Of a stretch of DNA of 64,000 nucleotides, positions 3,580 through 57,215 are shown one piece after another. How positions within the stretch are numbered: position 1 is the stretch's first letter; each line of letters begins with the position of its first letter. The notes under the pieces were generated by a model. The model was not told where the DNA came from and did not search any database. It saw nothing but the letters and a program-made list of their open reading frames with translations. This DNA comes from an uncultured Actinomycetota bacterium (GTDB lineage Bacteria > Actinomycetota > Actinomycetes > CAVWCF01), in NCBI GenBank assembly GCA_963753435.1, contig CAVWCF010000001.1, positions 1,248,001 through 1,312,000 of the forward strand. Reading direction: 5' to 3'. Both the position numbers and the translations under genes were made by a program.

Positions 3580-4674
3580 TCAGACGTCGGTGGGGATCAT
3601 TGACGTGCCGGACTTCATCCGGTCGCGGAAGGAACCGGCCGGGTATTCGCGGTCCTTCAGCTTCTCCATGAACTCCCGCAACGTGCGGGTGCCGTACGGC
3701 GGCGCCAAGTGGCTGACGACGGACCAATACTTGGCCGCTTCCAGATAGAACGCGACGTTCTTCATCCGCGGGTACACCGTGCCGACTCGGCGCATGCGCG
3801 CGATCGTCTTGTCCCAGGACTCCAGGGTCTGCACTTTGAACTGCGGCTCAGTCCCGAGAACGTCGAACATCATCTCGCCGGCGCTGCGCAGCGTCACGAC
3901 GTTGTCCTCGTTCCACGGCCCGCCGACCGGCAGGATGCGTCCGGCCGCGTCGTCGTCGCACAGCGCGTTGACGATGAACTCAGCCAGGTCTTCGCGCGCG
4001 ATCGGGTTGGTGAGGGAGTACTCACCGTGGTCGAAGATGCGGTACGGCTCGCCGTTCTTAACCGAGCCGAAGTTCACCGACAGGTACGGGTAGTAGGCGG
4101 TCGGCCGCACGATCGTGTACGGGATGCGGCCGAAGTGACCGCCGATGAGTTCCCCCTCCACCTGGAGTTTGTAGACCTGCGGCAACAACTCCGGGCGGTA
4201 GACGCCGTAGTCGGAGATGTGCACGAAACGGCGTGCGCCATGAGCCGCCGCGGCGCGGATCCCGTTGGTCACCGCCACGTAGTCGACCTGGCGACACTCC
4301 TCCGGATCGTTCGGCCGCCGCGAGCTCAACAATGAGATCGCACTGCGGATCGGGTACTGCGCGAACGCCGCCTCGATGTCCTCGGCACGAGTTGGGTCAC
4401 CGACAACGACTGGTACGTCCGGCATCCCGTCCACCGACTGCGTCGACCGCGCCAGGACCACCGGCGTGAAGCCGCGGTCCAGCAGCTCGGGCACCAGGGC
4501 CCGGCCGATGTAGCCACTGCCGCCCAGGACGAGCACATGCTCGCCATCGCCGCTGCCGCGACGCCCGGTCGCGTAGGTCTGCTTGACGGGTGAGTCACCG
4601 AAGACCTCGGCGCGCAGTTCGTCCACGCGGCGCTTGGCGGCGACCGGGTCCACCTGGCTGATGGTGCTGAACAT
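3580..4674 (-). CDS. Atypical SDR/NAD(P)H-binding oxidoreductase, divinyl-chlorophyllide 8-vinyl reductase (BciA/DVR)-like
   Basis: GGSGYIG Rossmann motif. VDY, YTIVRPTAYY, VKNGEPY..F..GE, NPI..EDLA.FI, RILPVGGP, KYW and PPYGTRTLREF blocks follow the remembered BciA/DVR layout along the full length. GAGGAGG RBS. Confidence 0.75.
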   Translation of the reverse strand: MFSTISQVDPVAAKRRVDELRAEVFGDSPVKQTYATGRRGSGDGEHVLVLGGSGYIGRALVPELLDRGFTPVVLARSTQSVDGMPDVPVVVGDPTRAEDIEAAFAQYPIRSAISLLSSRRPNDPEECRQVDYVAVTNGIRAAAAHGARRFVHISDYGVYRPELLPQVYKLQVEGELIGGHFGRIPYTIVRPTAYYPYLSVNFGSVKNGEPYRIFDHGEYSLTNPIAREDLAEFIVNALCDDDAAGRILPVGGPWNEDNVVTLRSAGEMMFDVLGTEPQFKVQTLESWDKTIARMRRVGTVYPRMKNVAFYLEAAKYWSVVSHLAPPYGTRTLREFMEKLKDREYPAGSFRDRMKSGTSMIPTDV

Positions 4675-4757
4675 GCAAACGCCTCCTCGGGTGGTGATAT
4701 CGAAGCGGCCCCACTTTGGCGGCGACAGGGACGTTGGACCCGCCGGTCCGTCCGTCG

Positions 4758-6221
4758 CTACTCCACGATGCGAACCACGCCGCCCCGGCGCGGATCGGCC
4801 GCAGCCGTGACCGCCCCGTCCGGATGGCGTTGCACCGCGTGCACACCGCCGAAGTAGAGGTTGCGCTCCTGCCAGACCCGCACCTCGCCGAGGGCCGCCA
4901 ATGCCGACAGTTGCTCGTCCGTGGCACCCGGCTCCACGTTCACCACTCCGTTGGTGGGGTGCGCTCGGGCTGCCGCAATGGCCTCGGGCAACGACATGCC
5001 GCGGTCGGTCAGGTTCACCGTCATCGCCAGCAATGCGGACCGGATCCGCTCGCTGCCGCCGCTGCCGAACCCCACGAGGGAGCCATCGGCGGCGCGGAGC
5101 AGGCTGGGGGCCATCATCGAAGCGATCCGGCTGCTCGGAGTTGCCGTGTGCAGGCCCCCGGGATGCAGGTCCTCCTCGCCGAGCATGTTGTTCAACTGAA
5201 CCCCGAGGCCCGCGGCGTACTGCCCCGATCCCGAGCCGTTCGACGTGGTCATCGCCGCGATCATCCCGGCGGAGTCCACGACACTGACATGGGTGGTACC
5301 GCGAACGGACATTCGCCGCTGCGTGCGGTGCTGCTCGGTAGCCGTGCGAATTGCCGAAACCTGATTGGCCAGGCCGTCGCTGGTGTCAACCGATCCGGGA
5401 CCAAGCAGTCCGATGGCTGAAGTGATGATGCTGCCGCCGAGGGAGGGGGGTGGATTCGTCAGCAGCGATGCCCCGCTGCGGCTTGCCACCAAGGGCCGGC
5501 GCAGGACCACCCGGTACCGCTGCTGGTCGGCGACGGTCAACAGTCCGCCGCCGGCCGTAACCGTTTCAACCGCGGCAAATCGAAATCGGTCCACACCCCG
5601 GGCCGGAGATGCGGCCAGATCGCCGAGGAAGCTGGCATATGCCGGGTTCCGCAACCGGTCACCGGCGACGGGGTAGCGACCTCCTCCGCCAAACAGCGCC
5701 GCACCCTCGTCGGTGCTGGTGAGGATGTCGCCGATCAGGGTGAACACGTGTTCCTGGGCGGCATCCATCACCGCACCAACATCCGCGAGTTGCTGGGCCG
5801 GGCCGACTACGGATGCCAGCGGGATGGCCCCCCACGCCTCATGGGCATGCAGGTAACCGGCCAAGCAGCCAGGTACGGCTACCGAGGCCGGTCCGACGTG
5901 GAACACCTGGTCGGCGCCGAGGAACCTGACGGTGATCGGGACTAGTGGTGCCCCGGAGCCCGGGGGCGCAGCCGGGGTGTTGGTGAAGAAGTCGCTGATC
6001 CAGGTCTCCCCGTCCGGCGTGTGGACCATGAGAAAGCCGCCACCGGCGAGACTGCTCAAACCCGGCTCGGCTACTGGCGCCGCGAAGCCCGCCGCCAGGA
6101 CTGCGTCGACGGCGTTGCCTCCATCGGCCAGCACGGACGCAGCCGCGTCTGCGGTGCCGACGCTGCCAGCGGCCACGGCTGCGCAGCCCGGTTGACCCGA
6201 CGCGTAGGGCACTGAACTCAC
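4758..6221 (-). CDS. Gamma-glutamyltransferase family protein (Ntn hydrolase)
   Basis: GGNAVDA..A, GGGF, VAVPG, autocleavage site GTTHVSVVD, LNNMLGE, SMMAP, GSGGSERI and ADPRRGG. Start estimated at GTG 6221 or 6212. Confidence 0.9.
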   Translation of the reverse strand: MSSVPYASGQPGCAAVAAGSVGTADAAASVLADGGNAVDAVLAAGFAAPVAEPGLSSLAGGGFLMVHTPDGETWISDFFTNTPAAPPGSGAPLVPITVRFLGADQVFHVGPASVAVPGCLAGYLHAHEAWGAIPLASVVGPAQQLADVGAVMDAAQEHVFTLIGDILTSTDEGAALFGGGGRYPVAGDRLRNPAYASFLGDLAASPARGVDRFRFAAVETVTAGGGLLTVADQQRYRVVLRRPLVASRSGASLLTNPPPSLGGSIITSAIGLLGPGSVDTSDGLANQVSAIRTATEQHRTQRRMSVRGTTHVSVVDSAGMIAAMTTSNGSGSGQYAAGLGVQLNNMLGEEDLHPGGLHTATPSSRIASMMAPSLLRAADGSLVGFGSGGSERIRSALLAMTVNLTDRGMSLPEAIAAARAHPTNGVVNVEPGATDEQLSALAALGEVRVWQERNLYFGGVHAVQRHPDGAVTAAADPRRGGVVRIVE

Positions 6222-6312
6222 GACGGACGACGCTAGTCCAGTAGCTGACCAGTGCTGCGTCGAGCATCCGCAAACAACACCTGGCCGACGATCGCGGCCG
6301 AGTCGAGGTTGC

Positions 6313-7116
6313 TCAAGCGCTACTGAATCGCGGGTCCTCAGCCAGCGGTGGCACTGTTCGCGGAGTCGGCGGCAGGCGCAGCAACCGCGGCCGGATCGCG
6401 AACGCCAGCGCGACAACCACGACGACCAGGCTCAGGGTCATCGGCCACGACCACCGGGAGTCCGTCGCTGCACCGTTGATCGCCAGGACGATGGCCACGA
6501 CCGACAATGCGTTCACCAACGTGGTGAAGCCGTGCATCACCTGCTGCTTGGTCCGCAGCAGCACATCCAGGAAATAGATGGTCAAGAAGACCGTCAACAG
6601 CGTAAGCACGATCACCGGGTCGCGGGTGGCGGCGTACAGGGCGCCTACCGACGCCAGCCCGAGGATCGTTTGCACCGCCTCCTTGGGGCCACCGGTCAGG
6701 TAGACCACCGCCAACAGGGCCACCACCGCGCCGACGGCCCACCACATCCAGCCGGTGTCGCCGTAGACGGCCAGCACATTGAGCCCCAGCGCGAGGCCGA
6801 CCAGCGACGTGAACAGCCAGTCCAGCACGCTTGGCGGCACCCCGATCAGATACCACCGGTCAAGAGTGTTCTGCGCGCTCTCGCAGACGCTGGCGACGAT
6901 CATGACCACCGCTGATGCGTAGAGGAGCGCGGGTCGCTCGAAGATCTGGTCCACGAACGCGCGTTGGTCGGCTACGGCCCAGACCAGCAGCAGCGGCGAC
7001 AGAATCGTGAGCACATGAGCGAGCAACACCCAAACAGCTGTGGGGACCGGCAGGTCGATCTCGGACCGCACCCGCTGCCACGGCCGCGCCGCTACCTGTT
7101 GCACCGCTTGCGCCAC
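6313..7116 (-). CDS. Polytopic membrane protein of unknown function
   Basis: About 7-8 hydrophobic segments with polar motifs AHVLT, CESAQNTLDRWY and QVMHGFTT. Start estimated at GTG 7116, just after the AKR stop. Confidence 0.75.
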   Translation of the reverse strand: MAQAVQQVAARPWQRVRSEIDLPVPTAVWVLLAHVLTILSPLLLVWAVADQRAFVDQIFERPALLYASAVVMIVASVCESAQNTLDRWYLIGVPPSVLDWLFTSLVGLALGLNVLAVYGDTGWMWWAVGAVVALLAVVYLTGGPKEAVQTILGLASVGALYAATRDPVIVLTLLTVFLTIYFLDVLLRTKQQVMHGFTTLVNALSVVAIVLAINGAATDSRWSWPMTLSLVVVVVALAFAIRPRLLRLPPTPRTVPPLAEDPRFSSA

Positions 7117-7139
7117 GCCTACCAGGCTACGACGCGGAC

Positions 7140-8129: not shown

Positions 8130-8172
8130 GGGGAGGCACCCTCTCGCACGCGATCACTTCGCGCACGAGGGG

Positions 8173-9813
8173 TCAGCCGGTAGGCGCCTGAACCATCTCG
8201 GCCGTTCGCTCGAACACCTCACGCCGCAGTGCTTCCCCCTGCGCAAGTTGGCTGGGCCGGGTGGGGCGGCGGTCCTTCCAGTACCAACCGGTGACACCGG
8301 CCACCTCGGGTGATGCGGCCAGGTAGATGGCCGTCTGCGCGGCTTCGGTTGGGGTGCGCAGGAGCGGCCGCGTCACGGCCACGAACCAGGCGAAGGGGCC
8401 GGTGACCTCCGCGTAGATGTTCGTCGGGACCAGAGCGCCGGGGGCCACGATGTTCACGGTCACTGCGGCGTCCGCCCACCGCTGGGCCAGTTCCAGCGCC
8501 GCTGCGGTCACGAGCAGTTTGGACTGGTTGTACGCCGCGAATCCGGCGTTGAGATCCACCTGCTTTTCCGGCCATCCCGACGGGCCGTTGAGGTCCTCGA
8601 AGTCCGGGCTGCTGGCCTGGCGATGTGCATCGGAGGACACGAAGAGGACGCGGGCAGACGAGTCCCGCAGGCGTTCGGCGAGCAACGCCGTCAGCAAGAA
8701 GCCGCCCAGATGGTTGGTCGCCAGCGTGCTCTCGTAACCGTGGGGTGTCTCTTCGTAGCGGGCACGGAACACGCCGGCGTTGTTGATGAGTACGTCGATG
8801 CGGGGGCAGGTTGCCTGCAGTTGCTCAGCTGCCGTGCGCACCTGTTCGGGCAACGACAGGTCACACACCAACAACTGGCCGCCGGTCTCCTCAGCGACCG
8901 ACTGACCGTTCACCGCGTCCCGGTCCACGATCACCACCTGCGCCCCGAGGCCGGCCAGGGCCCGAGCCGTTTCGGCCCCGATGCCGTTGGCGCCGCCAGT
9001 GATAACGATCGTTCGGCCGGTCAGGTCGCCGAGCGGAGCGGGTTCGCCCAGCGCCGGTCCGTCCGGATCGACCGGGTGCGGCCACCGGAAGGTGGGGAAC
9101 GGCATCGCCATCGTCGACAGCAGCAGGGCCAGCGCCTGCAGTGCCACGTACAGGCCCAGGTTCTCGTAAGCGGTCACCCAGATCCCCGCGACGACCAGGT
9201 TCGGAGTGTGCGCGAGCAGGACCTTGCGGCTGTTCCACTCGGCGATGTTGTGCTCCGGGGATACGTGGATGTCCCAGTACAGGGCATGCCACAGCCCGAC
9301 GAACGCGCTCAGCACGATCACCAACGTCGCCAGCGTCAGCGCATCAGCCAGGCCACCGGTTCCCAGCCAAGCCTCATACCCGCGCTTGGCCACCAGCCAA
9401 ACGGATCCGAACAGCAACCCCTCGCTGACACCCCAGGCCAGGCCGAAGACCAACGTGTCCGGCCAGACGATCCGTCGACCGTGCGGGCGCGTGCCGGCGG
9501 GCCAGATGAAGCCATACCCGACCAGGACAACGGCCAGGGCGGCCAAGCCCGTGACCCACCACAGCCAGTTGCTGGTCTGGCCGGGCAGAACCAATGGATT
9601 CGCGGCGATGGTCGACACAGTGCCGCTGGCGAACGCGATCGCCCAGGCAGCAGCGAAGTAGGTGCAGGCACGCAACCACGCGGCCCTGGTGTCGTAGCGC
9701 CACACTTCCCGGTCGCGCAGGTAGCGGCGCAGCAGCACGGCAAAGGCGAGCGCGATCAGGGCGGCGATGCCGGCAGCGGGCCAGTTGGCCGCTGCGATGG
9801 TGAAGTCGCTCAT
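8173..9813 (-). CDS. Fusion of an N-terminal multi-TM domain and a C-terminal classical SDR (retinol dehydrogenase/POR-like subfamily)
   Basis: About 240 aa hydrophobic N-terminus, then TGGANGIG, NNAG, TNHLG.FLLT, VSS.AH and YNQSK (YxxxK). Confidence 0.85.
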   Translation of the reverse strand: MSDFTIAAANWPAAGIAALIALAFAVLLRRYLRDREVWRYDTRAAWLRACTYFAAAWAIAFASGTVSTIAANPLVLPGQTSNWLWWVTGLAALAVVLVGYGFIWPAGTRPHGRRIVWPDTLVFGLAWGVSEGLLFGSVWLVAKRGYEAWLGTGGLADALTLATLVIVLSAFVGLWHALYWDIHVSPEHNIAEWNSRKVLLAHTPNLVVAGIWVTAYENLGLYVALQALALLLSTMAMPFPTFRWPHPVDPDGPALGEPAPLGDLTGRTIVITGGANGIGAETARALAGLGAQVVIVDRDAVNGQSVAEETGGQLLVCDLSLPEQVRTAAEQLQATCPRIDVLINNAGVFRARYEETPHGYESTLATNHLGGFLLTALLAERLRDSSARVLFVSSDAHRQASSPDFEDLNGPSGWPEKQVDLNAGFAAYNQSKLLVTAAALELAQRWADAAVTVNIVAPGALVPTNIYAEVTGPFAWFVAVTRPLLRTPTEAAQTAIYLAASPEVAGVTGWYWKDRRPTRPSQLAQGEALRREVFERTAEMVQAPTG

Positions 9814-11505: not shown

Positions 11506-11509
11506 CGAA

Positions 11510-13927: not shown

Positions 13928-13972
13928 CCCACGCGGGACGGCCGAACGGTGGCGTGGAGGCACGGAGGGGCG

Positions 13973-14815
13973 ATGAGTGAACCTGGGCAGATTCGGGGCC
14001 TGTCCGTAGTGGTGACGGGCAACACCCGGGGCTTCGGCCTGGCCGCAACGACGCTGCTGGCGCGCCTCGGGGCGCGAGTGGTTCTGTCGGGACCCGACCG
14101 CGCCGAGAGCGAGCGGGAGGCCGGCAAACTGCGCGACGCGGGCGCTGCTGCAGTCGCAGCCGACGGCGACGTGACCGATCCCGAACAGGTGGCTGCCCTG
14201 GCTGCGACCGCTGTCCACGAATTCGGCGGACTGGACGTGTGGGTCAACAACGCCGCCTTCGATACGCCCGGGATGGCGCGAACGCTGGAGTTCGACCCGT
14301 CAGTCGTGCCCGGGGTCACGGCGGTGAACATCCTCGGTACCTACTACGGCAGTCGCGCAGCCCTGGAGGTGATGGTCCCGCAGGGCCGCGGACTGCTGGT
14401 GAATGTGACCGGCCGCGGCGACGATCTCCGCCCGGCCAGGTACACCTCCGCATATGCGGCGTCCAAGGCCTGGATCCGCTCCTTCACCCGCACCGTTGCC
14501 GCGGAGTATGCGGACTCCGGCGTCCACATCGTGGCTTTCAACCCCGGGATGATGACGACGGGTCGGCTCACGACCGACGCGACCGACTCCGTGCTGGCCG
14601 ACGAGCGGACCATGCGGCTATACGGGTTCATCACACGGGCCATGGCTGACCCACCCGAGGTTGCCGCGAACCGGCTCGCCCGGATGGTGGCCGATGCTCA
14701 GGATGGCGACGTGCCCGGCGAGGTCCGACTGATCACGCCAAGCCGCGTCGTTCGAGGTTTGCTGTCCGAAGGAAGGCGCGCAGCCAGAACCGGCAGCAGG
14801 GTCGTGGAGCGCTAG
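13973..14815 (+). CDS. Classical SDR oxidoreductase, NOL/NYC1 (chlorophyll b reductase)-like subfamily
   Basis: TGNTRGFG, LDVWVNNA, VTGRGDDLRP..TSAYAASK, NPGMMTT..L and ADPPEVAA. GGAGG RBS. The SDR call is solid; the subfamily call is from memory. Confidence 0.8.
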   Translation: MSEPGQIRGLSVVVTGNTRGFGLAATTLLARLGARVVLSGPDRAESEREAGKLRDAGAAAVAADGDVTDPEQVAALAATAVHEFGGLDVWVNNAAFDTPGMARTLEFDPSVVPGVTAVNILGTYYGSRAALEVMVPQGRGLLVNVTGRGDDLRPARYTSAYAASKAWIRSFTRTVAAEYADSGVHIVAFNPGMMTTGRLTTDATDSVLADERTMRLYGFITRAMADPPEVAANRLARMVADAQDGDVPGEVRLITPSRVVRGLLSEGRRAARTGSRVVER

Positions 14816-16546: not shown

Positions 16547-16574
16547 TCTCCAGGCTGAGCTGCTGGGCGCACGG

Positions 16575-16647
16575 AGCCGCCTATCGGAATCGAACCGATG
16601 ACCTACGCATTACGAGTGCGTCGCTCTACCAACTGAGCTAAGGCGGC
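16575..16647 (-). tRNA. tRNA-Thr(CGT)
   Basis: GCCGCCTTAGCTCAGTTGGTAGAGCG-ACGCA-CTCGTAA-TGCGT-AGGTCATCGGTTCGATTCCGATAGGCGGCT folds as a cloverleaf. CCA is not encoded. Confidence 0.97.
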
Positions 16648-23428: not shown

Positions 23429-24481
23429 TCAGAGTTGCCGAGGGTTGGCCGCGAAGAAGTCCAACATGAGCGCGTTGGCGTCGATCGTGGCCGTGGTCAA
23501 GCCGCAGCATTCCTCACGAGCGGCTGCCGCAGCTCCCGGCCAGGTGTGCCCTCCCTCGGCGATCGAATACTGCTGCACGTCCACGCCGGCGCAGCCGTCC
23601 CAGTCCCGCAGGCTCACATCCGGCGGGGTCTCGGTGTCGGCGAAGTCACCACAACTGGCTCGCTGGGCCCAGGCCGCAGCCACCTCCATGGCGGGCCCGT
23701 TGTAGAAGTCGCCGTTCTCCGGCGCTTCGGCGATCCCGTCGTAGGACACGAAGAAGTCGGCCGTCCCGTGGAAACCCAGGTAGGCGACGGGCCGCCCCTC
23801 CGGGCAGGGCCGGACCAGGTTCGCGCCCGCGATCGGCGCGATGCCGGCCACGACGTCGGAGCTGCAGGCCAACCATGCTGGGAAAGCACCGCCGGCGGAG
23901 ATGCCGGTCGCGTAGACACCGTTCAGGTCCAGACAGGCGATGCCACCCACTTCGGCCAGCAGCGCTTCGACGAACGCGACGTCGTCGGCAGGGGTTTCAA
24001 AGCCGGGCACATTCCAGGCGGCGGGCAACTCCCCCTGCGGAGTAGTGCGCGACAAGCCCTGCGGGGTGAGAACGGCGAACCCACGGGCGTTGGCGTCGGC
24101 CACGAGGCCGGTGTACTGCTCAATGTCGTCGATGGTCCCGCCGGTTCCGTGGAACAGCAGGATGACCTTTGTCGGCTCATCTGCGGAGTAGTCGGACGGC
24201 GCGGTGAATCGATAGGCCCTGGAAACCTCTTGGTCCTCCAGCGTGGCCTCGTATGCCTGTCCCGGCTGGATCTGCCCGGTCGCCGACCCGCACCCCGCGG
24301 ATGCGGCCGCCACCGCGGTGGTATCGGGATCGCCCTTGGTGGCATCCGTTGTGGTGGAGCCCTCAGTCGCAGTAGCCCGGAAGCCGAACACGGCCGCAGC
24401 CAGCACGGCCAGACCAACAAGGCCGAACAACCACGAGGTCCGGGCGTCACCGCCGAACGGGCTGGCAGGGTTGCGGGACAC
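23429..24481 (-). CDS. Membrane-anchored/secreted esterase, PHB depolymerase (LpqC/LpqP) family
   Basis: LFHG.GG, DDVAFV, GISAGG nucleophile, HGTAD and GGHTWPG. Confidence 0.88.
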   Translation of the reverse strand: MSRNPASPFGGDARTSWLFGLVGLAVLAAAVFGFRATATEGSTTTDATKGDPDTTAVAAASAGCGSATGQIQPGQAYEATLEDQEVSRAYRFTAPSDYSADEPTKVILLFHGTGGTIDDIEQYTGLVADANARGFAVLTPQGLSRTTPQGELPAAWNVPGFETPADDVAFVEALLAEVGGIACLDLNGVYATGISAGGAFPAWLACSSDVVAGIAPIAGANLVRPCPEGRPVAYLGFHGTADFFVSYDGIAEAPENGDFYNGPAMEVAAAWAQRASCGDFADTETPPDVSLRDWDGCAGVDVQQYSIAEGGHTWPGAAAAAREECCGLTTATIDANALMLDFFAANPRQL

Positions 24482-30183: not shown

Positions 30184-30610
30184 TCAACCACCGGGGACAG
30201 CTTCGGCAACCCGCCGAACCTCCCCACCCCACGGCAAGGCGACGGCGACCTCGACGCGGCTGCGCGACGAGTCGGCCCGGCAGGCAAGCAGCCGTGCGCC
30301 GTTGGCCGCCGCTACCCGTTCCCCCAAACCGCAGGCATCAGCAGGACCCCCGACGATTTCGCCCGGGCCGACCTGGCCTCGTGCCGACTTGACCCGTGCC
30401 GACTTGACCCGTGCGGTCGGCAACAGCCAGAGCCGCCAGGTCCGCAGCGGTTCTGGCTCGCTGACCAGACCCGGCCAAGCCGACACCGGTCGCCAGGGCC
30501 GTGGCCAGCAGCACCAAGGCCATGGCGAAGGCCAGCACCAGCACCGTGGCGGAACCGTCCTCGGCGCGGATCAGTTTCTGGCAATGGCGCTTGGGCCCGT
30601 GCGGCTTCAT
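30184..30610 (-). pseudogene. TadE-like pseudopilin (Rv3654c family), interrupted by a +1 frameshift at about 30379
   Basis: EDGSATV prepilin site and ARTAADLAALA in one frame; AC..GERVAAANGARL.AC in another. Deleting one base restores GTGQVGPGEIV. Confidence 0.8.
30361..30414 (-). repeat. 15-bp tandem repeat (about 3 copies, coding GQVGT) inside the Rv3654c-like gene
   Basis: Minus strand GCACGGGTCAAGTCG x2, followed by a degenerate third copy that contains the extra base. Confidence 0.8.
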
Positions 30611-30966
30611 CTGGCCTCCGCGGCCACCGCGGCCGTGCCAACCACTTCGCGGATCGGGGCCACCCGGCCGAGCAGCCCGGACCACCCCAAGGGCCGACGC
30701 ACCTCGACGACCACAAGGCCGGCATCGCCGCGCGCATCAACCGCAACTCCCGGCCAACGGCGGGCGAGGTCCTGACTCACCGCGTCGATCGACCCACCTC
30801 GAGCCAGTTCGCGTGCGGTTGACCTGGCCGCTTCGTCGACCGCGATGTTCGCCGACAGCAGTGCGAGTAGCCCGGCCAGCAGCAGCGTCACCAAGGCCAG
30901 CACCGGCAACACGACCGCCGTCTCAGCGGTCACCGTGCCCGGGTCCGCCCGGACTGCGACTCGCAA
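30607..30966 (-). CDS. TadE family minor pilin (Rv3655c-like)
   Basis: G|TVTAETAVVLP prepilin motif and DEAARSTARELARG. Start uncertain (TTG 30966). Confidence 0.82.
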   Translation of the reverse strand: MRVAVRADPGTVTAETAVVLPVLALVTLLLAGLLALLSANIAVDEAARSTARELARGGSIDAVSQDLARRWPGVAVDARGDAGLVVVEVRRPLGWSGLLGRVAPIREVVGTAAVAAEAR

Positions 30967-31020
30967 CCAGTCCCGCTTTCGGCTCCCACCCCGCCCTCGA
31001 CGCCAAACCCGGCCGGCGGC

Positions 31021-31072
31021 GCGACCGCCGCCCCCGGCGCCGGAAGGGGGCGGCGCCGGGGGCAGTGGCCGC
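31021..31072 (-). terminator. Long GC-rich hairpin directly downstream of the Flp pilin gene
   Basis: 13-bp perfect stem GCCCCCGGCGCCG/CGGCGCCGGGGGC, extended by G-U pairs on the minus strand. Confidence 0.65.
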
Positions 31073-31088
31073 AGGGGTTGGCCGGTAC

Positions 31089-31283
31089 TCAGAACAGGAA
31101 TTCGAAGCCCTTGCGGATCACGTCCCCGATGAGCTCGAGGATCGAGTCGGACGTGAGCACCTTGTAGAGCAGTCCGCCGAAACCGCACGCGGCGACGGTT
31201 CCTACGGCGTATTCGGCGGTTGTGAACCCCTCCTCGGCTGGGGCTGATCGGATCAACTGCCCGACGCGACGCGTCAAGAACAT
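31089..31283 (-). CDS. Flp-type major pilin (DUF4244, Rv3656c-like)
   Basis: EEG|FTTAEYAVGTVAACGF. AGGAG RBS. Confidence 0.92.
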   Translation of the reverse strand: MFLTRRVGQLIRSAPAEEGFTTAEYAVGTVAACGFGGLLYKVLTSDSILELIGDVIRKGFEFLF

Positions 31284-31466
31284 GAGCGACTCCTAGGACC
31301 GGCTTCGGCCGGGACGTCCCCCGCGGTCGCGGCGGCACACGCAGCCCACCGGCTACTGGCGGTGCAGGGAGGTGGTCGCACCCAAGCTGGGGAGGAATCG
31401 AGTTGTGAATCCCTTGTGGACGACGGCGATCGCGACGTCTTGGCGGAGCAAAGGCCGTTGGCCGGC

Positions 31467-32144
31467 CTAGAACAATCCCGATGCGATCCCGGCCACGATC
31501 GGAACCACACCGACGAGCACGAAGGCCGGCAGGAAACACAGGGCCAGCGGGAGGACGACCCGCACGGTCGAGGCGTGCAACCGCGCCTCGACGTCGACGG
31601 CGGCGCCGCGGCGCATGTGGTCGGCGGCACGCTCCAGCGCGTCGGCTAGGCCCGAGCCCGAACTCAGCGACCTGCGCAGCGCGGACCGGGCGATCGCGGC
31701 GGACGACCCACCTACGGAAAGCAGTTCCGACCACGCCGATGTGGCGTCGACCCCGCTATGCAAGGCCCGCGCGGCCTTGGCCAGTGAACCCGCCGTGGGC
31801 TCCCCGAAGCAGCGGCTCACGGATGCCGCGGCGCGGCCAGGAGAAGCGCCGGAGCGAAGACAAGCAGCCATCAGGTCCAGCGCGACGGTCACGTCGGCAA
31901 CCGCTGCCGGCGGCGGGCGGGGCTGAGCCCGCTGCAGCGCCCAGGTCAACACGGAAGCCGCCGCCCAGCCGACCGCCATGGACCAGGGCAGCGGGGCCAG
32001 GAGCAGGGACACCAACCACGCTCCCGCTCGGGCCGGGACAAGCAGTCGGTGCGCGGGCCCCGCGTCGGCAAGCAGCCGACGCAATCGCGCGGCCGGAGTT
32101 GCAGACCAAAGCAGCACCGCCGCGACGGCCAGCGCGGTGCTCAC
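31467..32144 (-). CDS. TadC-like type II secretion system F family protein
   Basis: LDLMAACLRSG and VVLPLALCFLPAFVLVGVVP. The GTG start overlaps the tadB-like stop (GTGA). Confidence 0.88.
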   Translation of the reverse strand: MSTALAVAAVLLWSATPAARLRRLLADAGPAHRLLVPARAGAWLVSLLLAPLPWSMAVGWAAASVLTWALQRAQPRPPPAAVADVTVALDLMAACLRSGASPGRAAASVSRCFGEPTAGSLAKAARALHSGVDATSAWSELLSVGGSSAAIARSALRRSLSSGSGLADALERAADHMRRGAAVDVEARLHASTVRVVLPLALCFLPAFVLVGVVPIVAGIASGLF

Positions 32145-32803
32145 AATCGGGTCAGGACGCGGATCCACCACCAACCGGCGATGTCCAAGGCGACAGCACT
32201 CGCCAGACAGACGCGGCCAATACTCGTGCCGAACAGGAAACCAAGCGGGTCGGCACCGAAACCCCAGCCGAGCAGCACGCCGAGCAGCGGTAGCCCGAGC
32301 AGGACCCTCGACGTCGCCCTGGAGCCGGCCAGCAGCGCTCGTTGCTGCTGACGATGTTTGCGGTCTTCGGCTGCGAGGTCCCCTATCCGTTGCAGCGCTT
32401 CGGCCAGCCCCGCACCGTCTTCGTTCGCAACCTCCACGGCTGCGGCTGCCCACTGGAAGGAGGGCTCGGGGATCTGTCGCAGCCGCGAAGGCACGTTCAG
32501 CCCCAGCGAAGCGGCAGCGACAGCCGGTCCAAGCGCCAGGGCCGTCGGCTCGGTGGCCTCGGCGGCTGCCGCCCGCAACGCCACAGCCAGTGCGGCACCG
32601 GAACGCATCTCCGTTGCGCTGTCCCACCACAGCCGCGGCGCGTCACCCGCCAGCGCCCGTTGGACTCGACGGTCGCGCAGGCGTCGGCGGGGTCGCTGCC
32701 GGCCTTGCCGCATGGACGACAGCAGCACCCGGCGGCGCGGCGCTGCCGTGACGGCAACCCAAGCAGCGCAAGCGGCCAGGCCAGCAGCCAGTTCAGCTGC
32801 CAT
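32141..32803 (-). CDS. TadB-like type II secretion system F family protein
   Basis: EMRSG, GAGLA..L, AGSRATSRVL.GLP and GADPLGFL. Confidence 0.86.
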   Translation of the reverse strand: MAAELAAGLAACAAWVAVTAAPRRRVLLSSMRQGRQRPRRRLRDRRVQRALAGDAPRLWWDSATEMRSGAALAVALRAAAAEATEPTALALGPAVAAASLGLNVPSRLRQIPEPSFQWAAAAVEVANEDGAGLAEALQRIGDLAAEDRKHRQQQRALLAGSRATSRVLLGLPLLGVLLGWGFGADPLGFLFGTSIGRVCLASAVALDIAGWWWIRVLTRL

Positions 32804-33986
32804 CGGAGTGGATGGGTAGTGGTGGCGCGAAGGCACCGAGGCGACGGCGCAGTTGGGCCAGTCCCGGCCCGGGACGCACCCGGTCGGCCTCGAACAGAAC
32901 CGCCGGTTGCACGGAGACCAGGTCGCCATCACGGCAGCAGACACCGATCCCCCATACCGTCCGACGCCCGGACGGGGAGCGCAGCACGTGTACGACTGCG
33001 TCGAGCCCGGCTGACATCTGCGCATGGACGGCCGCGCGAGGCCAACCCGCCGGGGCCGCCAGCGCCTCGATCCGGGCCGGGAGGTCTGCCGCGGAGTTGG
33101 CGTGCACGGTGGCGCAACCACCTTCGTGCCCAGTGTTCAGCGCACTAAGTAGGTCGATCACCTCCACACCGCGCACTTCTCCGACGACGAGCCGGTCCGG
33201 GCGCATCCGCATCGCCTGCCGAACGAGGTCCGTCAACGTCACCGACCCCGCGCCTTCGACGTTGGGTGGTCTTGCCTGCAGTAGCGCCGTGTGCGGATGC
33301 TGCGGGTCGAGTTCGGCGGAGTCCTCGACCACGACGAGGCGTTCCCGCTCCGGCACGAGTTCCAACAGCGTGCTCAGCACGGTGGTCTTGCCGGTCCCAG
33401 TTCCGCCTGTGACCACGTAGGAGGCCCGCGCATTCACCAACGCGGCCAGCCACCGCGCCCCGACCGCATCCAGGCCGCCTTGTCGCACCAAGTCGGCCAG
33501 CGTGAGCACCCGCCGACGCGGGATCCGTAGCGAGAGCAATGCGCCACCACGCGCGACCGGTGGGATTACCGCGTGCAGCCGCACACCGTCGGGCGTGCGC
33601 GCATCCACGAACGGCTGTGCAGCATCCAGGCGTCTACCAGCGGCCGTCGCCAATCGCTGCGCCAAGCGCCGGATGGCTTCGTGGTCGGCGAAACGGACCG
33701 GTGACCGGACCAGGCCCTCGCCGCGATCGACGAACACCTGGTCTGGACCGTTGACCAGGACGTCGGTTACCTCCGGGTCTTCCAGAAGCGGTTGCAGCGG
33801 CCCGGCCCCGAGCAGTTCCGAGCGGACCTCTGCACACAGGCGGCGCGTTTCCGGGCCGCTGAGCACGACGCCCTCGGCGCGAACCGCGGCGACGATGTCG
33901 GGCTCATGCGCGGCAGCACCGGAATCGACCAACCGATCCCGGACCCGTTCGACCAGCGGTCGATCACCCAGCACCCGCACACTCAC
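32793..33986 (-). CDS. tadA: TadA/CpaF pilus assembly ATPase
   Basis: GGTGTGKTT, VEDSAEL, RMRPDRLVVGEVRG and NTGHEG. Confidence 0.94.
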   Translation of the reverse strand: MSVRVLGDRPLVERVRDRLVDSGAAAHEPDIVAAVRAEGVVLSGPETRRLCAEVRSELLGAGPLQPLLEDPEVTDVLVNGPDQVFVDRGEGLVRSPVRFADHEAIRRLAQRLATAAGRRLDAAQPFVDARTPDGVRLHAVIPPVARGGALLSLRIPRRRVLTLADLVRQGGLDAVGARWLAALVNARASYVVTGGTGTGKTTVLSTLLELVPERERLVVVEDSAELDPQHPHTALLQARPPNVEGAGSVTLTDLVRQAMRMRPDRLVVGEVRGVEVIDLLSALNTGHEGGCATVHANSAADLPARIEALAAPAGWPRAAVHAQMSAGLDAVVHVLRSPSGRRTVWGIGVCCRDGDLVSVQPAVLFEADRVRPGPGLAQLRRRLGAFAPPLPIHSDGS

Positions 33987-34819
33987 GCCGCGGCCCCGAG
34001 TTCGTTCAAGTACTGCCGGCAGAACCGGCGCAAGGGGCCGCGTGGCCGCGGCAGGTCCCCGTGCTCCAGCGCCACATCAAGACCGGGTTCGGCGCGCACC
34101 GAACCGGCTAGCGGCAGTCCGACGACCTCCGCGATCACTTGCGCGTCCATGCCCGCCGGAGCCGGACCGCGAACAAGCAGGCGCACGTCCCGCACCTGGC
34201 TGGCCAACTGCTTGCCCGCGGCAGTTGCGGACACGGTTGCCCGGGCTTCTGCGGGCACGACGAGCAGGGCGTGCGCAGCCATCCGGCAGGCCAGCGCGGT
34301 GGCATCGGTTCCGCCCCTGGCCACATCAACCACGATGAGATCGACCACGGAAGCCGCGGTACCGATCACCGCGGCAACCGCTTCCGCCGGGATCGCGACC
34401 GGGTCCCGATCAACAGAGACAACACTCAGACCACCAAGCCTCGGCAAGACGGGCAGCAGTTCCTCGGCCGCAACCGGCTCAGTCAGCGTGACCAGACCCG
34501 GCCACCGCACCCCGGGCGTCTCCTCCATGCCGAGGACAAGGTCCAGTCCGGAGCCACGTTCGTCGACGTCGACCAGGAGCACCTTGGCGCCGTCCTCGGC
34601 GCCGGCCAAGGCCAGTGCGGCTGCTGCCACCGACGCGCCGGCCCCGCCGCGGCCAGCCGCGACGACTACTGCCAGCGCGGTTCGCTCGACGCTGCCACGA
34701 CCCCCGGGCCCGTAGCCCCATGGCCGCGGGTGAGCATCGCCGCTGACCGGTTGCACATCTGCTCGTTGCACCGTGAACACCTCCGGCGCGGACCCTGCTA
34801 TGGCCGGACGTCCGACCAC
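33983..34819 (-). CDS. ssd: Septum-site-determining protein Ssd / CpaE-like ATPase (short N-terminus, start uncertain)
   Basis: GRGGAGAS deviant Walker A, LVDVD..GSGLDLVLG.E..PG.RW and PRGPL..FC. First gene of the tad cluster. Confidence 0.82.
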   Translation of the reverse strand: MVGRPAIAGSAPEVFTVQRADVQPVSGDAHPRPWGYGPGGRGSVERTALAVVVAAGRGGAGASVAAAALALAGAEDGAKVLLVDVDERGSGLDLVLGMEETPGVRWPGLVTLTEPVAAEELLPVLPRLGGLSVVSVDRDPVAIPAEAVAAVIGTAASVVDLIVVDVARGGTDATALACRMAAHALLVVPAEARATVSATAAGKQLASQVRDVRLLVRGPAPAGMDAQVIAEVVGLPLAGSVRAEPGLDVALEHGDLPRPRGPLRRFCRQYLNELGAAA

Positions 34820-45663: not shown

Positions 45664-45687
45664 GCGGGGCGCCGACGCCCGAAACCT

Positions 45688-50067: not shown

Positions 50068-50074
50068 GATCACA

Positions 50075-50200
50075 ACGTAGGGACCGAGTACCTAGCGGTG
50101 TAGGCCCGAAAGTATCAATATCAAATAGTGCTTTCTAACTACTTCTAGTGAACATTCCGCGAACGTGCGCCAGCCCGGAGGCCACGTACCCTTATGGATC
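50075..50200. promoter_or_regulatory. AT-rich divergent promoter region between whiB4 and ponA2
   Basis: AAAGTATCAATATCAAATAGTGCTTTCTAACTACTTCTAG is markedly AT-rich against the roughly 70% GC background. Confidence 0.55.
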
Positions 50201-52585: not shown

Positions 52586-52621
52586 GCGATGCGGTTGGGC
52601 AGGCGGAGGTAAGCCACCCGA

Positions 52622-53095
52622 CTAGCCCAGCCCCAACCGCTTCTTGACCGCAACGGCCACTGCGGCGCCGTCGGCCCGGCCCATGGTTGCCGGCTGCACC
52701 TGCTTCATGACCGCACCCATGGCTTTGCCACCACTCAGCCCCGCCGACTCCGCCGCCGCAACTGCGTCCTCGATGAGCGCGGTCAGTTCCGCCTCCGTCA
52801 ACGGTTCGGGCAGATACCGCGCCAACACCTGCTCTTCCAGGCGCTCGCGTTCGGCCAACTCCACCCGGCCGGCGTCGTCATAGGCGGTCGCCGCCTCGCG
52901 GCGCTTCTTCACCTCACGGCTCAACACGGCGACCACGTCCGCATCGGACAACTGCCGCGCCTCCTTGCCGGCCACCTCTTCGTTCGTGATCGCCGTAAGC
53001 GCCATGCGAAGAGTGGAGACCGTCGGCTCGTCCTTGGCACGCATCGCCGCGGTCAGGTCGGACTTCAGTTGTTCCTTCATCGTGGTCACGGGCAC
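52622..53095 (-). CDS. GatB/YqeY domain protein
   Basis: DL..AMRAKD, EVKKRREA..Y, YLPEPL and MG.VMK..GRADG. Confidence 0.93.
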   Translation of the reverse strand: MPVTTMKEQLKSDLTAAMRAKDEPTVSTLRMALTAITNEEVAGKEARQLSDADVVAVLSREVKKRREAATAYDDAGRVELAERERLEEQVLARYLPEPLTEAELTALIEDAVAAAESAGLSGGKAMGAVMKQVQPATMGRADGAAVAVAVKKRLGLG

Positions 53096-53149
53096 ATCGT
53101 GGCACTACGCGTTCGCGCCAACGCAGGCGTCTGGGACGATGACCCGGCC

Positions 53150-54049
53150 ATGCCTGCCCCTCGCCGCGTTCTTGCCGCCGTTGCGGGCGCCGGCGCCCTT
53201 GGCTTGGGCTATTCGCTGGCCGAGGCGCGCGCGCACCGATTGCGACGCTTCGCCGTCCCCGTTCTAGCCCCCGGGCAACGCAGCGTTCGGCTGCTGCACT
53301 TGTCCGATTTGCACCTGACGCCGTGGGACGGCCACCGGGTTCGCTGGCTGAAGTCACTGGCTGATCTGCGCCCAGACCTGGTGGTGGTTACCGGCGACTT
53401 CCTGGCGCACCGCGATTCGGTGCCGATCGTGATGGAGGCACTGGGTGGACTGTTGGACGTCCCCGGCGCCTTCGTCTTCGGCTCCAACGACTACTACGCA
53501 CCCGCGCTGAAGAACCCCGCCCGCTACCTGTTCCCGGATACCGGCAAACGCAAGCATGGGCGGCAGTTGCCGTGGCCGGAACTGGAGTCCCAACTCAGCG
53601 CCGCGGGCTGGCACAACTTGACCCACCGTCGCGTGCGGATCCAGGTCGGGACGACAGCCGTGTCCTTGCGCGGCGTGGACGATCCGCATCTGGGCCGAGA
53701 TGAATACACCCAGGTGGCCGGCCCGGCGGATCCGGATGCGCTGGCGATCGGTGTCACCCACGCCCCGTACGCACGGGTCCTGACCGCGATGGCCGAAGAC
53801 GGGATGCAACTGATCCTCGCCGGGCATACCCATGGAGGGCAGTTGTGCGTGCCGGGCTGGGGCGCGCTGGTCACCAACTGCGACCTGCCCCCCAGGCATG
53901 CCCGCGGCCTGAGCCGCGTGGGTCACGCTGTTCTGCACGTGTCCGCCGGTGTGGGCACATCGCCCTTCACGCCTGTCCGCTTTGCCTGCCCGCCGGAGGC
54001 CAGCCTGCTCACCCTGCGGCCGCATGAGGGGCCGAATCGGCCCGATTGA
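53150..54049 (+). CDS. Metallophosphoesterase (Rv3683-like)
   Basis: SDLH, TGD, FGSNDY, TH.P and GHTHGGQ. Confidence 0.93.
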
Positions 54050-54096
54050 TCGCGTTGGGGACGGGTCCGGCCCTCGGATACAGTGACGCCTCGCAT

Positions 54097-54170
<74 letters not shown>

Positions 54171-54193
54171 CGATGTCGAGTAGCGCAGCGATC

Positions 54194-54586
54194 TCAATCG
54201 CTCGCGACTTCGCGCAGCATCTTTCCTAGCTGGGCATAGCGCTGCGCGCCGAGGCGCTCGGCGTAGCGCTCCTCGACCCGGGCCACGGCCTCCTCGAACC
54301 GAGCGTTCAACTCATTCCCACGCCCCGACCTTCGGACCAGCCAGGCCCGCCCGTCTGCGGGATCGGGCGTCCGCTTGATCAAACCCTCAGCTTCCAGCCC
54401 TTCGATCGCTTCGGCCATCGCCTGCTTGCTGATGCCGGCGCGATCAGCAAGGTCCTGCTGCCGGGCACCGGCAGCAGGGATCAGTTGGAGCAACCGGATC
54501 CGCCGCAGCCCCAGATGCGCCAGTTCCTCGGGTAGGACAGCGCCAAGCTCAACAGCGGTACGCGCCTGAACAGCCTCAAGAAGCAC
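54194..54586 (-). CDS. MarR family transcriptional regulator (start uncertain; the reading frame extends to about 54650)
   Basis: [31 protein letters not shown] winged-helix signature. Confidence 0.9.
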
Positions 54587-54629
54587 CAGCAGATGGTCTG
54601 GCGATGCAGGGTCGATGTCGAACTCCCAG

Positions 54630-54670
54630 TGGTCAATCTTCTTGACTAAAATGGTCAGGTAGGTTGACGA
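54630..54670. promoter_or_regulatory. Tandem palindromic operators GTCAA-N5-TTGAC and GTCAG-N5-TTGAC between the divergent marR and SDR-RCCR genes
   Basis: Perfect inverted repeat at 54632-54646 and a one-mismatch copy at 54654-54668, flanking TAAAAT (54647-54652). Confidence 0.75.
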
Positions 54671-54700
54671 TACTCCGGGATCGCGAAGAAGGGGAACGGC

Positions 54701-56344
54701 ATGCGGGTACTTATCGTCGGTTGTGGGCTGGTCGGCAAGGAGTTGGCTCAGCAACTCCGGGCGGATGGCCACCACGTCATCGGCACCACCACGACTCCCG
54801 GCAAGGTCACCGCGCTGCAGCAGGTGTGCGACGACGTTGCCGTGCTCACCGGCGCCGACACCGCGGCCGTGCACGCCGCCGCCAAGGACGTCGACGCGAT
54901 CGTGGTAACCGCCGGTCCCGCCGCCGCCCAGGCCATGACGGTCGAGCAACGGCAGAAGACCTACCGCCGTGTCCTTGTCGACACCGCCGAGTCGGTGTCG
55001 AGTGTGCCCGGCGACCCCTACCTCGTGATGCTGTCATCCCTGTCGGTCTACGGGGACGCGGCCAACCACCTGGACGTCATCGACGAGTCCAGCCCCCTGT
55101 CAGACAGCGAGGACCCAAGCCCGGCCATGTTCCAAGAGGCGGAGCGCACCTACCGCAACGCCGCCGCGGATCGGCTGGCGATCTTCCGCTGCGCCGACAT
55201 CACCGGTGGCGAGGATCCGCCGATCATGGACAAGCTGCGCATGGCCCATCAGGTCTTGGGTGGTTCGGTGCCGTTCCACGACGAGGCGCTCTTCTACCGC
55301 GTCCACATGCTCGATGTGGTCGGAGCCGTGAAGTACGCCCTCGACCGCCGCTTCACCGGCACCTACAACCTCACCCACGCCGAGGTGCCGCCGCCCATGC
55401 AGCCGTACTTCGATGCCCTGTGCGCCCTGGACGGCCTGCCGCCGCTGCAGTACCGCAACGAGTTGACGGCACCTACCAAGCCGGTATCCGTGGACGCCCT
55501 GCTGGCCACTGGCTTCACCCTCGCCCACACGCAGGTTGAGGAGATGCCGGCCGCGGACGCGGTCGCACCGCCGAGCGCACTCACCGGCATCGACCGGACG
55601 GGCCGAGAGATGGTCACGGCCGTTCTCGATCGACTCATCTCGGAACTGGAACTCACTGAGGAAACATCTGCGGACGGCCAGCCCGTGCTGCCGATCACCG
55701 CAGTCGGTGGCGTCAAGGACGGGCAGCGAATCGGCGAGTTCCGGGTGTTCTCCCGCCCGGGTGGTCCCCGCGTCGTCTACAGCGCGCTCTCAATCGACGA
55801 CTTCGGCATGGACACCCACCAGGTCTACGCATTCACCGGCGCGGACAGTGCGGTACCGCACCTGTTCGTCGACACCGCGATCTCGCCCAACACCGATGGC
55901 ACGTTCCACTTCGGCCTGGACCTGGTTGCGCGGGTCGATCTGGCCGCTTCCTTCGACTACACGCAGGCCGTGTACGGAGAACTCACCGACGTCCGGGGCG
56001 ACGCCCTAGCCACACCCGGCGTCCTGCCGGTCCCGTCGCTCGGCCCGTTGCAGTGGTCGCTGCGCTCACCCTGGATGCTCGCAGCCATCGCCGCGCCCGG
56101 TGACCTGAAAGCGCTCGCTCCCGCGGTGGATGCCTACGTTGACCAGTGGCTGAACCTGGTCAAGTCGGGGCTGCCGGAGGCCGCGGCCGCCGACGCGCAG
56201 TGGCAGAACGTCGCTGAGCGCGACCGACGCAATCGCGCCGCAATCTTCTCCCCCGCGGCCAACCCGGTCTGGTTCCTGCTGGACCGGCTGGTGGGCGCCG
56301 AGCAGTCGGCCGCCATGCGGGCGCTGCTTACCGCGCAGGACTGA
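54701..56344 (+). CDS. Fusion of an atypical NAD(P)-binding SDR/epimerase domain and a red chlorophyll catabolite reductase (RCCR)/ferredoxin-dependent bilin reductase-like domain
   Basis: N-terminus GCGLVG..GTTT, SS.SVYG, FRCADITG. C-terminus AFT..DSAVPH..VD, F.LDL..RVDL....DY...VY, SPW, Y..QWL and ERD..NR parallels remembered RCCR blocks. Confidence 0.72.
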   Translation: MRVLIVGCGLVGKELAQQLRADGHHVIGTTTTPGKVTALQQVCDDVAVLTGADTAAVHAAAKDVDAIVVTAGPAAAQAMTVEQRQKTYRRVLVDTAESVSSVPGDPYLVMLSSLSVYGDAANHLDVIDESSPLSDSEDPSPAMFQEAERTYRNAAADRLAIFRCADITGGEDPPIMDKLRMAHQVLGGSVPFHDEALFYRVHMLDVVGAVKYALDRRFTGTYNLTHAEVPPPMQPYFDALCALDGLPPLQYRNELTAPTKPVSVDALLATGFTLAHTQVEEMPAADAVAPPSALTGIDRTGREMVTAVLDRLISELELTEETSADGQPVLPITAVGGVKDGQRIGEFRVFSRPGGPRVVYSALSIDDFGMDTHQVYAFTGADSAVPHLFVDTAISPNTDGTFHFGLDLVARVDLAASFDYTQAVYGELTDVRGDALATPGVLPVPSLGPLQWSLRSPWMLAAIAAPGDLKALAPAVDAYVDQWLNLVKSGLPEAAAADAQWQNVAERDRRNRAAIFSPAANPVWFLLDRLVGAEQSAAMRALLTAQD

Positions 56345-56345
56345 A

Positions 56346-57215
56346 GTGCGGCGCGGACCCGCTGACGGAGACTGGGTCGCAAGCCCACTACGGGACAACT
56401 GGTACCAGTCCAGTTCCTATTGGGCCTCGACGTTCGGCCTCGTCACCACCGTGGACGAGGACGGCCAGACCAACGTTGCTCCGTACCAACTGTCGTTCCC
56501 GTTCGAAGTGATCGGCGGGCGCGCGGTGCTGTTGATATCGCGCCCGGACTCAAACACGGCGCGCAACCTGCGCCGTACCGGCGTGTGCGCCATCAACTAC
56601 GTGGAGGCCAAGCGCAAGGAGCTCAAGCGCATCGTCGCTCTCGGCTTCCCTGGTCAGACAACGGCGGAGAAGAGCCCAGACAACCCGTACTCACTGACCG
56701 GCAGCCCAACTCCCGGTCGGTCGCCCGACGGCCGGCGGTTCCCCCATCTGCTCCAAGAGGCGTTCCAGGTATACGAGTGCACGTGGGACACCGAACAGCC
56801 GCTGCACGCCGACCAACCGGCGCCGGCCTACTTCGTGCTGCGGCTGGACGGGATCCTGCTTCGGGAGCGGTGGGCCAAGAACCTGGAGGACGGGGGCCGG
56901 GCAATGCCCCGGCTGCCAATCACGTACGGGTTCCGCGGGGGCACCAGATTCTGGTTCGCCAAGGTGCGCAAGCCGTTCTGGATCGACACCCCCACCGATC
57001 GTGGGCCCAAAGAGGAGGCGATCCTCTACGAGGCCAACCGAATCGACCCGGACGTCCGGTTCACCCGGGAGGCGTGCCAGCAGTTGACGGGAGTGCCGCG
57101 ACCGTTTCTGAAGATGGCGCTGAAAGGCATCGTCAAGAAGGCCAAGGAACGTGGGCTGACCGAGGTCGACGTCGACTTCGTCCGCGAAGTCGACGAGCAG
57201 CGCCGGGCCGGCTGA
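56346..57215 (+). CDS. Flavin-reductase-like (split barrel) domain fused to a C-terminal PCP_red (BchB/ChlB C-terminal)-like three-helix domain
   Basis: LVTTVDE.G.TNVAPY, SNTA.NL..TG...INY and YEC. C-terminus FT.EA...L..VP.PFLK.AL..I...A.E.G..EV..D.V. Confidence 0.72.
   Translation: MRRGPADGDWVASPLRDNWYQSSSYWASTFGLVTTVDEDGQTNVAPYQLSFPFEVIGGRAVLLISRPDSNTARNLRRTGVCAINYVEAKRKELKRIVALGFPGQTTAEKSPDNPYSLTGSPTPGRSPDGRRFPHLLQEAFQVYECTWDTEQPLHADQPAPAYFVLRLDGILLRERWAKNLEDGGRAMPRLPITYGFRGGTRFWFAKVRKPFWIDTPTDRGPKEEAILYEANRIDPDVRFTREACQQLTGVPRPFLKMALKGIVKKAKERGLTEVDVDFVREVDEQRRAG

Follow-up and report, generated by a model that had tools for sequence, protein, structure and literature searches.

Chlorophyll turnover amounts to about a billion tonnes per year, and the available text of a recent screen (bioRxiv 10.64898/2026.03.19.712979) calls its prokaryotic route essentially unknown; the same text reports RCCR-type gene sets in non-phototrophs, one third of them Actinomycetota, and describes RCCR-type and SGR-type genomes as mutually exclusive. 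RCCR is presented as a streptophyte innovation in the accessible portion of PMC9306834, which also mentions that some algae excrete red chlorophyll catabolite (RCC), a plausible food for bacteria. According to the accessible portion of PMC10151467, where RCCR relatives serve as outgroup only, the known enzymes with this fold take tetrapyrroles as substrates, following an oxygenase step. Here we analyse a 64-kb stretch (the window, C1:1248001-1312000) of an actinobacterial genome of 2.17 Mb (68% GC, 98% complete), in which an earlier note had linked five genes resembling chlorophyll enzymes, named here after their first positions 3580, 8173, 13973, 54701 and 56346. At genome level this link holds for four of the five and loosely for the fifth. 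With about even confidence, we read them as satellites, scattered over the genome, of a conserved gene set in bacteria, which would open, reduce and consume tetrapyrroles, most likely chlorophyll products from algal detritus.

Core operon and conservation of the gene set

The window carries satellites only; the core operon lies 260 kb away (C1:1565-1571 kb) and encodes an RCCR-like protein, an α/β hydrolase (esterase), a Rieske oxygenase, a second RCCR-like protein, a 323-aa β-barrel protein and a short-chain dehydrogenase/reductase (SDR). Ring-opening and ester-hydrolysing candidates, which the earlier note had proposed to seek, thus stand together with two RCCR-like genes. The iron-site residues E153, D157, H160 and H165 of the oxygenase are invariant in 11 aligned rows, 9 of which contain the Rieske domain, and since the genome has no heme oxygenase (positive control matched), a Rieske enzyme is the evident candidate for ring opening. 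The Ser-Asp-His triad of the esterase (S153, D211, H256) is invariant in 14 rows. The 323-aa protein adopts a DUF3598/BFA1 double barrel (Z 17) in a model of pLDDT 74 that is poor at residues 75-117, and each single barrel resembles nitrobindin and bilin lyases (Z 11-13). Six paralogues with the RCCR/bilin-reductase fold are encoded, 13-34% identical and all retaining D407; three operon-type paralogues score on the RCC_reductase profile, two of them above the cut-off, including the first operon gene, and one paralogue passes the Fe_bilin_red cut-off.

Near the operon and at C1:66-87 kb and 1349-1352 kb we find genes for ABC transport, nitrilase-type and metal amidohydrolases, isochorismatase, two Amdase-family (maleate-isomerase-like) proteins, aldehyde dehydrogenases, CoA transferases, MaoC hydratases, PrpD-family proteins and HMG-CoA/citryl-CoA-type lyases. 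Altogether, genes related to the set occupy more than 10 places in the genome. In other organisms these pieces come together: in Nocardioides dubius their homologues occupy one cluster of about 55 kb and in N. agri one of about 85 kb, the gene order of the core operon is repeated in three further genomes (G121, G139 and G249) and the two Nocardioides, and operon members recur in loci of Woeseiaceae, Microbulbifer and Chloroflexota. The genes 3580, 8173, 54701 and 56346 also lie within or beside such clusters elsewhere. What is conserved is a real, uncharacterised catabolic gene set.

The distribution of the window genes follows that of the RCCR family. Among 400 genomes drawn from the class, with 5-6 candidates scored per genome, PF06405 is present in 10, and orthologues of 3580 (3 genomes), 13973 (4) and 56346 (3) are all found within these ten; the nominal p values (1e-5, 2e-7 and 1e-5, respectively) are overstated, as kin are not independent. 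The earlier note had named a lack of correlated distribution as evidence that would speak against its link, and in this sample the three orthologues are confined to RCCR-positive genomes. We also compared 25 chosen RCCR-positive genomes with 25 others, 5 of which were judged by locus alone: the 8173 N-domain occurs in 14 of the RCCR-positive genomes and in none of the others, and 13973 orthologues in 6 and none, mostly in two families. At 80 loci of the 54701 N-domain family, an RCCR-like domain is present at 55, including Woeseiaceae, Microbulbifer, Halieaceae, Thalassomonas, Chloroflexota and Polyangiales. The 8173 N-domain accompanies eight of the 80 loci, every one RCCR-bearing, and sits within clusters in three phyla; a 56346 homologue follows the fusion at three, and a weak 13973 homologue appears at one. 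The samples that contain this DNA are from sediment, freshwater, runoff and estuary (4 studies, a possible source study excluded).

Several further places in the genome touch on these families. A possible seventh paralogue of the fold lies at C1:894716-895561 (E 6e-4 to a local profile, no Pfam match). At C1:808567-810215, a second Rieske-oxygenase gene that lacks the Rieske cluster section and keeps the iron site is followed by an RCCR-like gene, and this truncated form is conserved in two other genomes (G001 and G002). A run at C1:501860-507414 encodes pyruvate:ferredoxin oxidoreductase, a DHOD-like protein and a Fe_bilin_red protein whose tail weakly matches PCP_red (E 0.022), and could be a source of reduced ferredoxin for bilin reductases. 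Two 84-aa paralogues (C1:824679-825922 and 890617-891720) look PCP_red-like by eye with no Pfam matches; one is near ferredoxin and DUF169 genes, and the other adjoins a paralogue of the window membrane protein at 6313-7071. An ABM-family protein and a hydrolase are encoded at C1:1539678-1540689, and their homologues directly adjoin an RCCR-like gene in Nocardioides clusters.

The five genes and their surroundings

The window features discussed below are:

3580-4674, minus strand: atypical SDR, sister clade to the 8-vinyl reductase BciA/DVR (about 30% identity; from a tree)
8173-9813, minus strand: fusion of an uncharacterised membrane domain (about aa 30-245) and an RDH/PRK06196-type SDR (from profile scores and alignment)
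13973-14815, plus strand: classical SDR with YxxxK (from Pfam, relatives and a tree)
16573-16647: tRNA-Thr, bordering a non-core stretch
54097-54171, plus strand: tRNA-Pro, bordering the right accessory block
54194-54949, minus strand: MarR-family regulator, divergent from 54701 (Pfam MarR at aa 153-202; real start probably near 54600)
54632-54668: inverted repeats, GTCAA-N5-TTGAC at 54632-54646 and a one-mismatch copy at 54654-54668 (read from the sequence)
54701-56344, plus strand: fusion of an NAD(P)-binding extended-SDR domain (aa 1-295) and an RCCR/ferredoxin-dependent bilin reductase (FDBR) fold (aa 296-547) (from a structure model and paralogue match)
56346-57215, plus strand: flavin-binding split barrel with a C-terminal PCP_red-like tail, starting 1 base after the 54701 fusion

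All five open reading frames (ORFs) begin where the earlier note had placed them; for the third, the ORF finder starts at a GTG at 13949, and the public protein is the 280-aa form. As proposed, the genes fall into two non-core stretches bordered by the two tRNA genes, surrounded by a standard backbone of topA, tmk, holB, tad, acs, nth, crp, ponA and ask/asd-type genes. The noted absence of photosynthesis genes extends from the window to the 98% complete genome, which gave no match to Photo_RC or DPOR/nitrogenase (PF00148, the DPOR subunit family, 0) with positive controls matched, and a remnant of photosynthesis is therefore ruled out. The joint presence of the five genes in a single 64-kb window is mostly coincidence, because in the closest relative (G001) they sit on separate contigs, with orthologues of the window genes spread over its contigs C7, C8 and C6. 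A single island at the level of the window is ruled out by this lack of linkage and by relatives at more than 10 genome places.

The RCCR-like label of 54701 is borne out by its structure model (pLDDT 91.7), in which aa 296-547 match Arabidopsis RCCR (2zxk; Z 22.1, root-mean-square deviation 3.1, 238 residues aligned) and display the α/β/α FDBR fold across the full domain; PebA (2x9o) is matched with Z 21.9. The RCCR Pfam family PF06405 gives no match in this protein at E<=1, Pfam detecting only the epimerase domain. Whole-protein Foldseek likewise returned the epimerase domain alone, and the RCCR domain surfaced at rank 43 of a wider search. The closest paralogue of the C-domain is the second RCCR-like gene of the operon (E 2e-53). 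In the N-domain, S140 and F144 are invariant in place of the extended-SDR YxxxK residues (in an inferred register), and for this reason it is likely an atypical SDR; stand-alone paralogues of the N-domain are encoded at C1:1360621 and C2:34301 (E 1e-86 and 6e-72).

For 56346, the tail similarity behind its PCP_red-like label is present and weak, and it stays below the PF08369 cut-off (E 0.033; 14.7 versus 32.5 bits). PCP_red matches occur in 5 of the 11 family members (best E 9e-6, under the cut-off), BchB tails compare with the family at E 0.1-1.3, and the 56346 tail is the sole PCP_red match in the genome search. A role as DPOR subunit is excluded, as the N-domain is a flavin split barrel and the genome is devoid of PF00148. 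The split barrel, which weakly matches HupZ, likely provides a flavin-based electron supply. Upstream of the pair, the inverted repeats are likely MarR operators, and a scan for sigma-70 promoters and terminators yielded 0 sites. RNA contigs from four estuary metatranscriptomes match parts of 54.9-57.2 kb with 97-99% identity; we dropped them as evidence of expression, as coverage is near even across 17 kb and DNA was possibly present.

The tree places 3580 as sister to the BciA-type clade (98/96), in keeping with its DVR-like label, but in a clade of its own (100/100) rather than nested among canonical BciA; the outgroups are long branches, and the canonical side is set by database names, a Rhodobacter plasmid copy and a eukaryotic sequence. 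Relatives carry chlorophyll-type reductase names at JGI, in the style of 'divinyl chlorophyllide reductase', and such names are no sign of phototrophy; no photosynthesis neighbours lie within 6 kb of the two plasmid BciA-like matches examined. In G139 an orthologue lies about 2.4 kb away from the RCCR fusion; the N. dubius copy is about 3 kb outside the end of its cluster, and in N. agri about 7 kb separate the gene from an Amdase gene at the cluster edge. Since orthologues occur in just 8 of the 40 genomes that bear RCCR and in none of 10 others, 3580 is an accessory member of the set, likely a vinyl or side-chain reductase acting on a tetrapyrrole.

The POR-family label of 8173 does not stand: the protein reaches 69 bits on LPOR TIGR01289 against a cut-off of 331, and its best match is the PRK06196/06197 SDR. 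In its membrane domain H188, H202, D181 and K197 are invariant, and H176 is found in 86% of rows; an Rce1-like match (score 0.83) is a lead only. 13973 is the weakest link to the set, and its label as NOL-like (NOL/NYC1 chlorophyll b reductase) is unproven. It is a generic SDR, as are all its atlas clusters; none of its 120 listed relatives is named chlorophyll b reductase, and no plant sequence is among its matches. In a quick tree, 13973 and the operon SDRs form two separate supported clades with unsettled mutual relation, and relatives of 13973 occur in Chloroflexota and archaea.

Elsewhere in the window, an uncharacterised membrane protein (6313-7071, minus strand; paralogue E 7e-33), flanked by GGT and aldo-keto reductase genes, may be a further member of the set. 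The right accessory block contains, behind a two-component pair, genes for an ApbE flavin transferase and a ferric-reductase-like membrane protein (60303-61849, plus strand). An esterase of the poly(hydroxybutyrate) depolymerase type with an N-terminal membrane anchor (23429-24481, minus strand) and a Tad/Flp-type pilus cluster of the usual backbone (30338-34819, minus strand) lie between the blocks.

Proposed route and competing explanations

From the observed homology, folds, gene order and co-occurrence we infer the following route. An ABC system would import the pigment, the Ser-Asp-His esterase would remove a phytyl or methyl ester, and the Rieske oxygenase would open the ring; RCCR-fold enzymes, the DVR-like enzyme and SDRs would reduce bridges, vinyl and carbonyl groups, with the double β-barrel protein holding the bilin. 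Later oxidation would yield maleimide-type units. Amidases, maleate-isomerase-family proteins, CoA transferases, hydratases and HMG-CoA/citryl-CoA-type lyases would then channel these units to central metabolism; the steps after ring opening are modelled on family chemistry, after the maleamate and maleate routes. In this scheme, 54701 and 56346 would act together as a bilin reductase fed by NAD(P)H and flavin and controlled by the MarR regulator. Because the downstream genes are CoA-dependent, the pigment may serve as a carbon and nitrogen source and not simply be detoxified. Of the dispersed heterotrophic toolkit that the earlier note envisaged, the candidates and their co-distribution are retained, whereas the window proves to hold satellites only, the POR label was wrong and chlorophyll is not singled out.

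Catabolism of tetrapyrroles is likely, as the known enzymes of the fold act on such compounds and the set also holds a DVR relative, PCP_red-like tails and the barrel protein. That chlorophyll is the main substrate is an evenly balanced proposition, favoured by the RCC_reductase matches, the Rieske oxygenase in place of heme oxygenase, the conserved esterase and the sediment, freshwater and estuary habitats. A dedicated bacterial route for full chlorophyll mineralisation across aquatic and soil Actinomycetota, Gammaproteobacteria and Chloroflexota is more doubtful; it would combine Rieske ring opening, a battery of RCCR-fold enzymes including the NAD(P)H-fed fusion, and CoA-dependent breakdown of pyrrole units.

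A number of results weigh against the chlorophyll reading. A PaO-like oxygenase, which the earlier note had suggested looking for, did not turn up: the PaO domain PF08417 is found in 0 of 11 operon-Rieske members and nowhere in the genome (positive control matched), and the operon enzyme is VanA-type, with SxtDIOX/SxtT, NdmA and DdmC as best solved relatives. The esterase is nearer to PETases, and Chlorophyllase PF07224 is absent from it, with weak matches in 6 of 14 relatives (best E 1e-4). HCAR/BciB homologues, also proposed there, gave 0 genome matches with the positive control matched in 4 of 14, and SGR Mg-dechelatase gave 0 with the control genomes likewise silent; a missing SGR is expected from the mutual exclusion of RCCR-type and SGR-type genomes stated in the available text of bioRxiv 10.64898/2026.03.19.712979. 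No solved chlorophyll b reductase or chlorophyllase structure is among the structure matches, which excludes nothing. The 54701 C-domain shares 18% identity with plant RCCR, and the RCCR-like gene is absent at 25 of the 80 N-domain loci, mostly in Streptosporangiales and kin. 3580 has no orthologue at these 80 loci and a low share among RCCR-bearing genomes, and cluster neighbours accompany a 3580-like gene in 0 of 14 metagenome contigs, mostly short ones. Orthologues of 3580 span three families, those of 13973 two families and those of 56346 one genus, which are few lineages with a common habitat, and the neutral control is thin, consisting solely of the Kelch gene neighbouring 13973 (0 of 5 RCCR-positive genomes). 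Lastly, nothing examined separates chlorophyll from heme- or phycobilin-derived bilins.

The strongest competitor, which we consider possible if on balance unlikely, retains the same gene set but assigns it to biliverdin, bilirubin, phycocyanobilin or tetrapyrroles generally as main substrates, with the chlorophyll-like names reflecting shared ancestry. Heme-derived bilins bear vinyl groups too. The fold is equally near PebA and RCCR, one paralogue exceeds the Fe_bilin_red cut-off, the barrels are akin to nitrobindin and phycobilin lyases, the split barrel weakly matches HupZ, and an ABM-family gene adjoins the RCCR-like gene in Nocardioides. These points are countered by the lack of heme oxygenase, by the RCC_reductase scores of the three operon-type paralogues, by the conserved esterase, which suits esterified chlorins more than heme, and by a habitat rich in algal detritus.

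It is improbable that the cluster degrades a non-tetrapyrrole N-heterocycle or aromatic for which the RCCR fold was recruited to new chemistry. The VanA-type Rieske oxygenase would fit, as would amidases, maleate-isomerase-family proteins and CoA transferases, all common in heterocycle catabolism, and the accessible part of PMC12746152 describes Nocardioides breaking down another cofactor, lumichrome, via such a cluster, which as far as it is described there is a distinct pathway and no match. Yet the fold's known enzymes (FDBRs, RCCR, CPOX) act on tetrapyrroles (PMC10151467, accessible portion), and the RCCR fold, the DVR sister clade and the PCP_red-like tail represent three independent tetrapyrrole-related families converging here. 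Least likely, and live mainly for 13973, which forms a clade apart from the operon SDRs in the quick tree and has Chloroflexota and archaeal relatives, is that only 54701-56346 belong to the pathway and that 3580, 8173 and 13973 are unrelated accessory genes of kin in a common habitat, as their dispersal over three contigs in G001 would allow; the 8173 N-domain within clusters of three phyla, the position of 3580 next to the fusion or at the margins of clusters in families that are not related, and a Kelch neighbour that does not track RCCR genes argue otherwise.

The tetrapyrrole set would give the RCCR family a bacterial home, and it suggests that a bilin reductase might work without ferredoxin and that a DVR relative may serve outside photosynthesis. 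It points to specific enzymes and to cultured type strains, namely N. dubius, N. agri, Microbulbifer spp. and Halioglobus japonicus, and the question is therefore directly testable.

Comparison with described systems

We found no description of this cluster in the literature searched, mostly at listing or abstract level and with subscription papers largely outside its scope. The study in bioRxiv 10.64898/2026.03.19.712979 is a presence screen whose main text, supplements apart, is free of the terms operon, synteny, neighbo- and co-local-; in the text available, its test strain is Shewanella acanthi and products are traced to pheophorbide. The pre-PcyA clusters, as described in the accessible portion of PMC10151467, likewise place the FDBR fold in gene clusters of non-photosynthetic bacteria. 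There, however, it is accompanied by heme oxygenase, globins and V4R proteins and serves chromophore making, whereas the present genome is without heme oxygenase and the content of its set is catabolic. With BciA/DVR, 3580 has the QxxK and RPT motifs and the glycine-rich loop in common as a member of the sister clade; it is set apart by an identity of only about 30%, a clade of its own, a changed motif after the catalytic-region Ser and the absence of chlorophyll-synthesis genes from the genome.

The set resembles the PAO-RCCR couple of the plant PAO/phyllobilin pathway (2zxk, PF06405), in which a Rieske oxygenase is also paired with RCCR-fold reductases, here with an esterase and an SDR alongside, but its members fail PAO, chlorophyllase, POR and BchB membership. 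Unlike its plant counterpart, the bacterial Rieske enzyme lies outside the PaO family, the RCCR fold is present in six paralogues, one of them fused to an NAD(P) domain, and neither HCAR (control matched) nor SGR (controls silent) has a match in the genome. Whereas plants end at phyllobilins, the bacterial set carries attached genes for breakdown to CoA esters, and, judged by these gene families, its pathway appears to go past phyllobilins.

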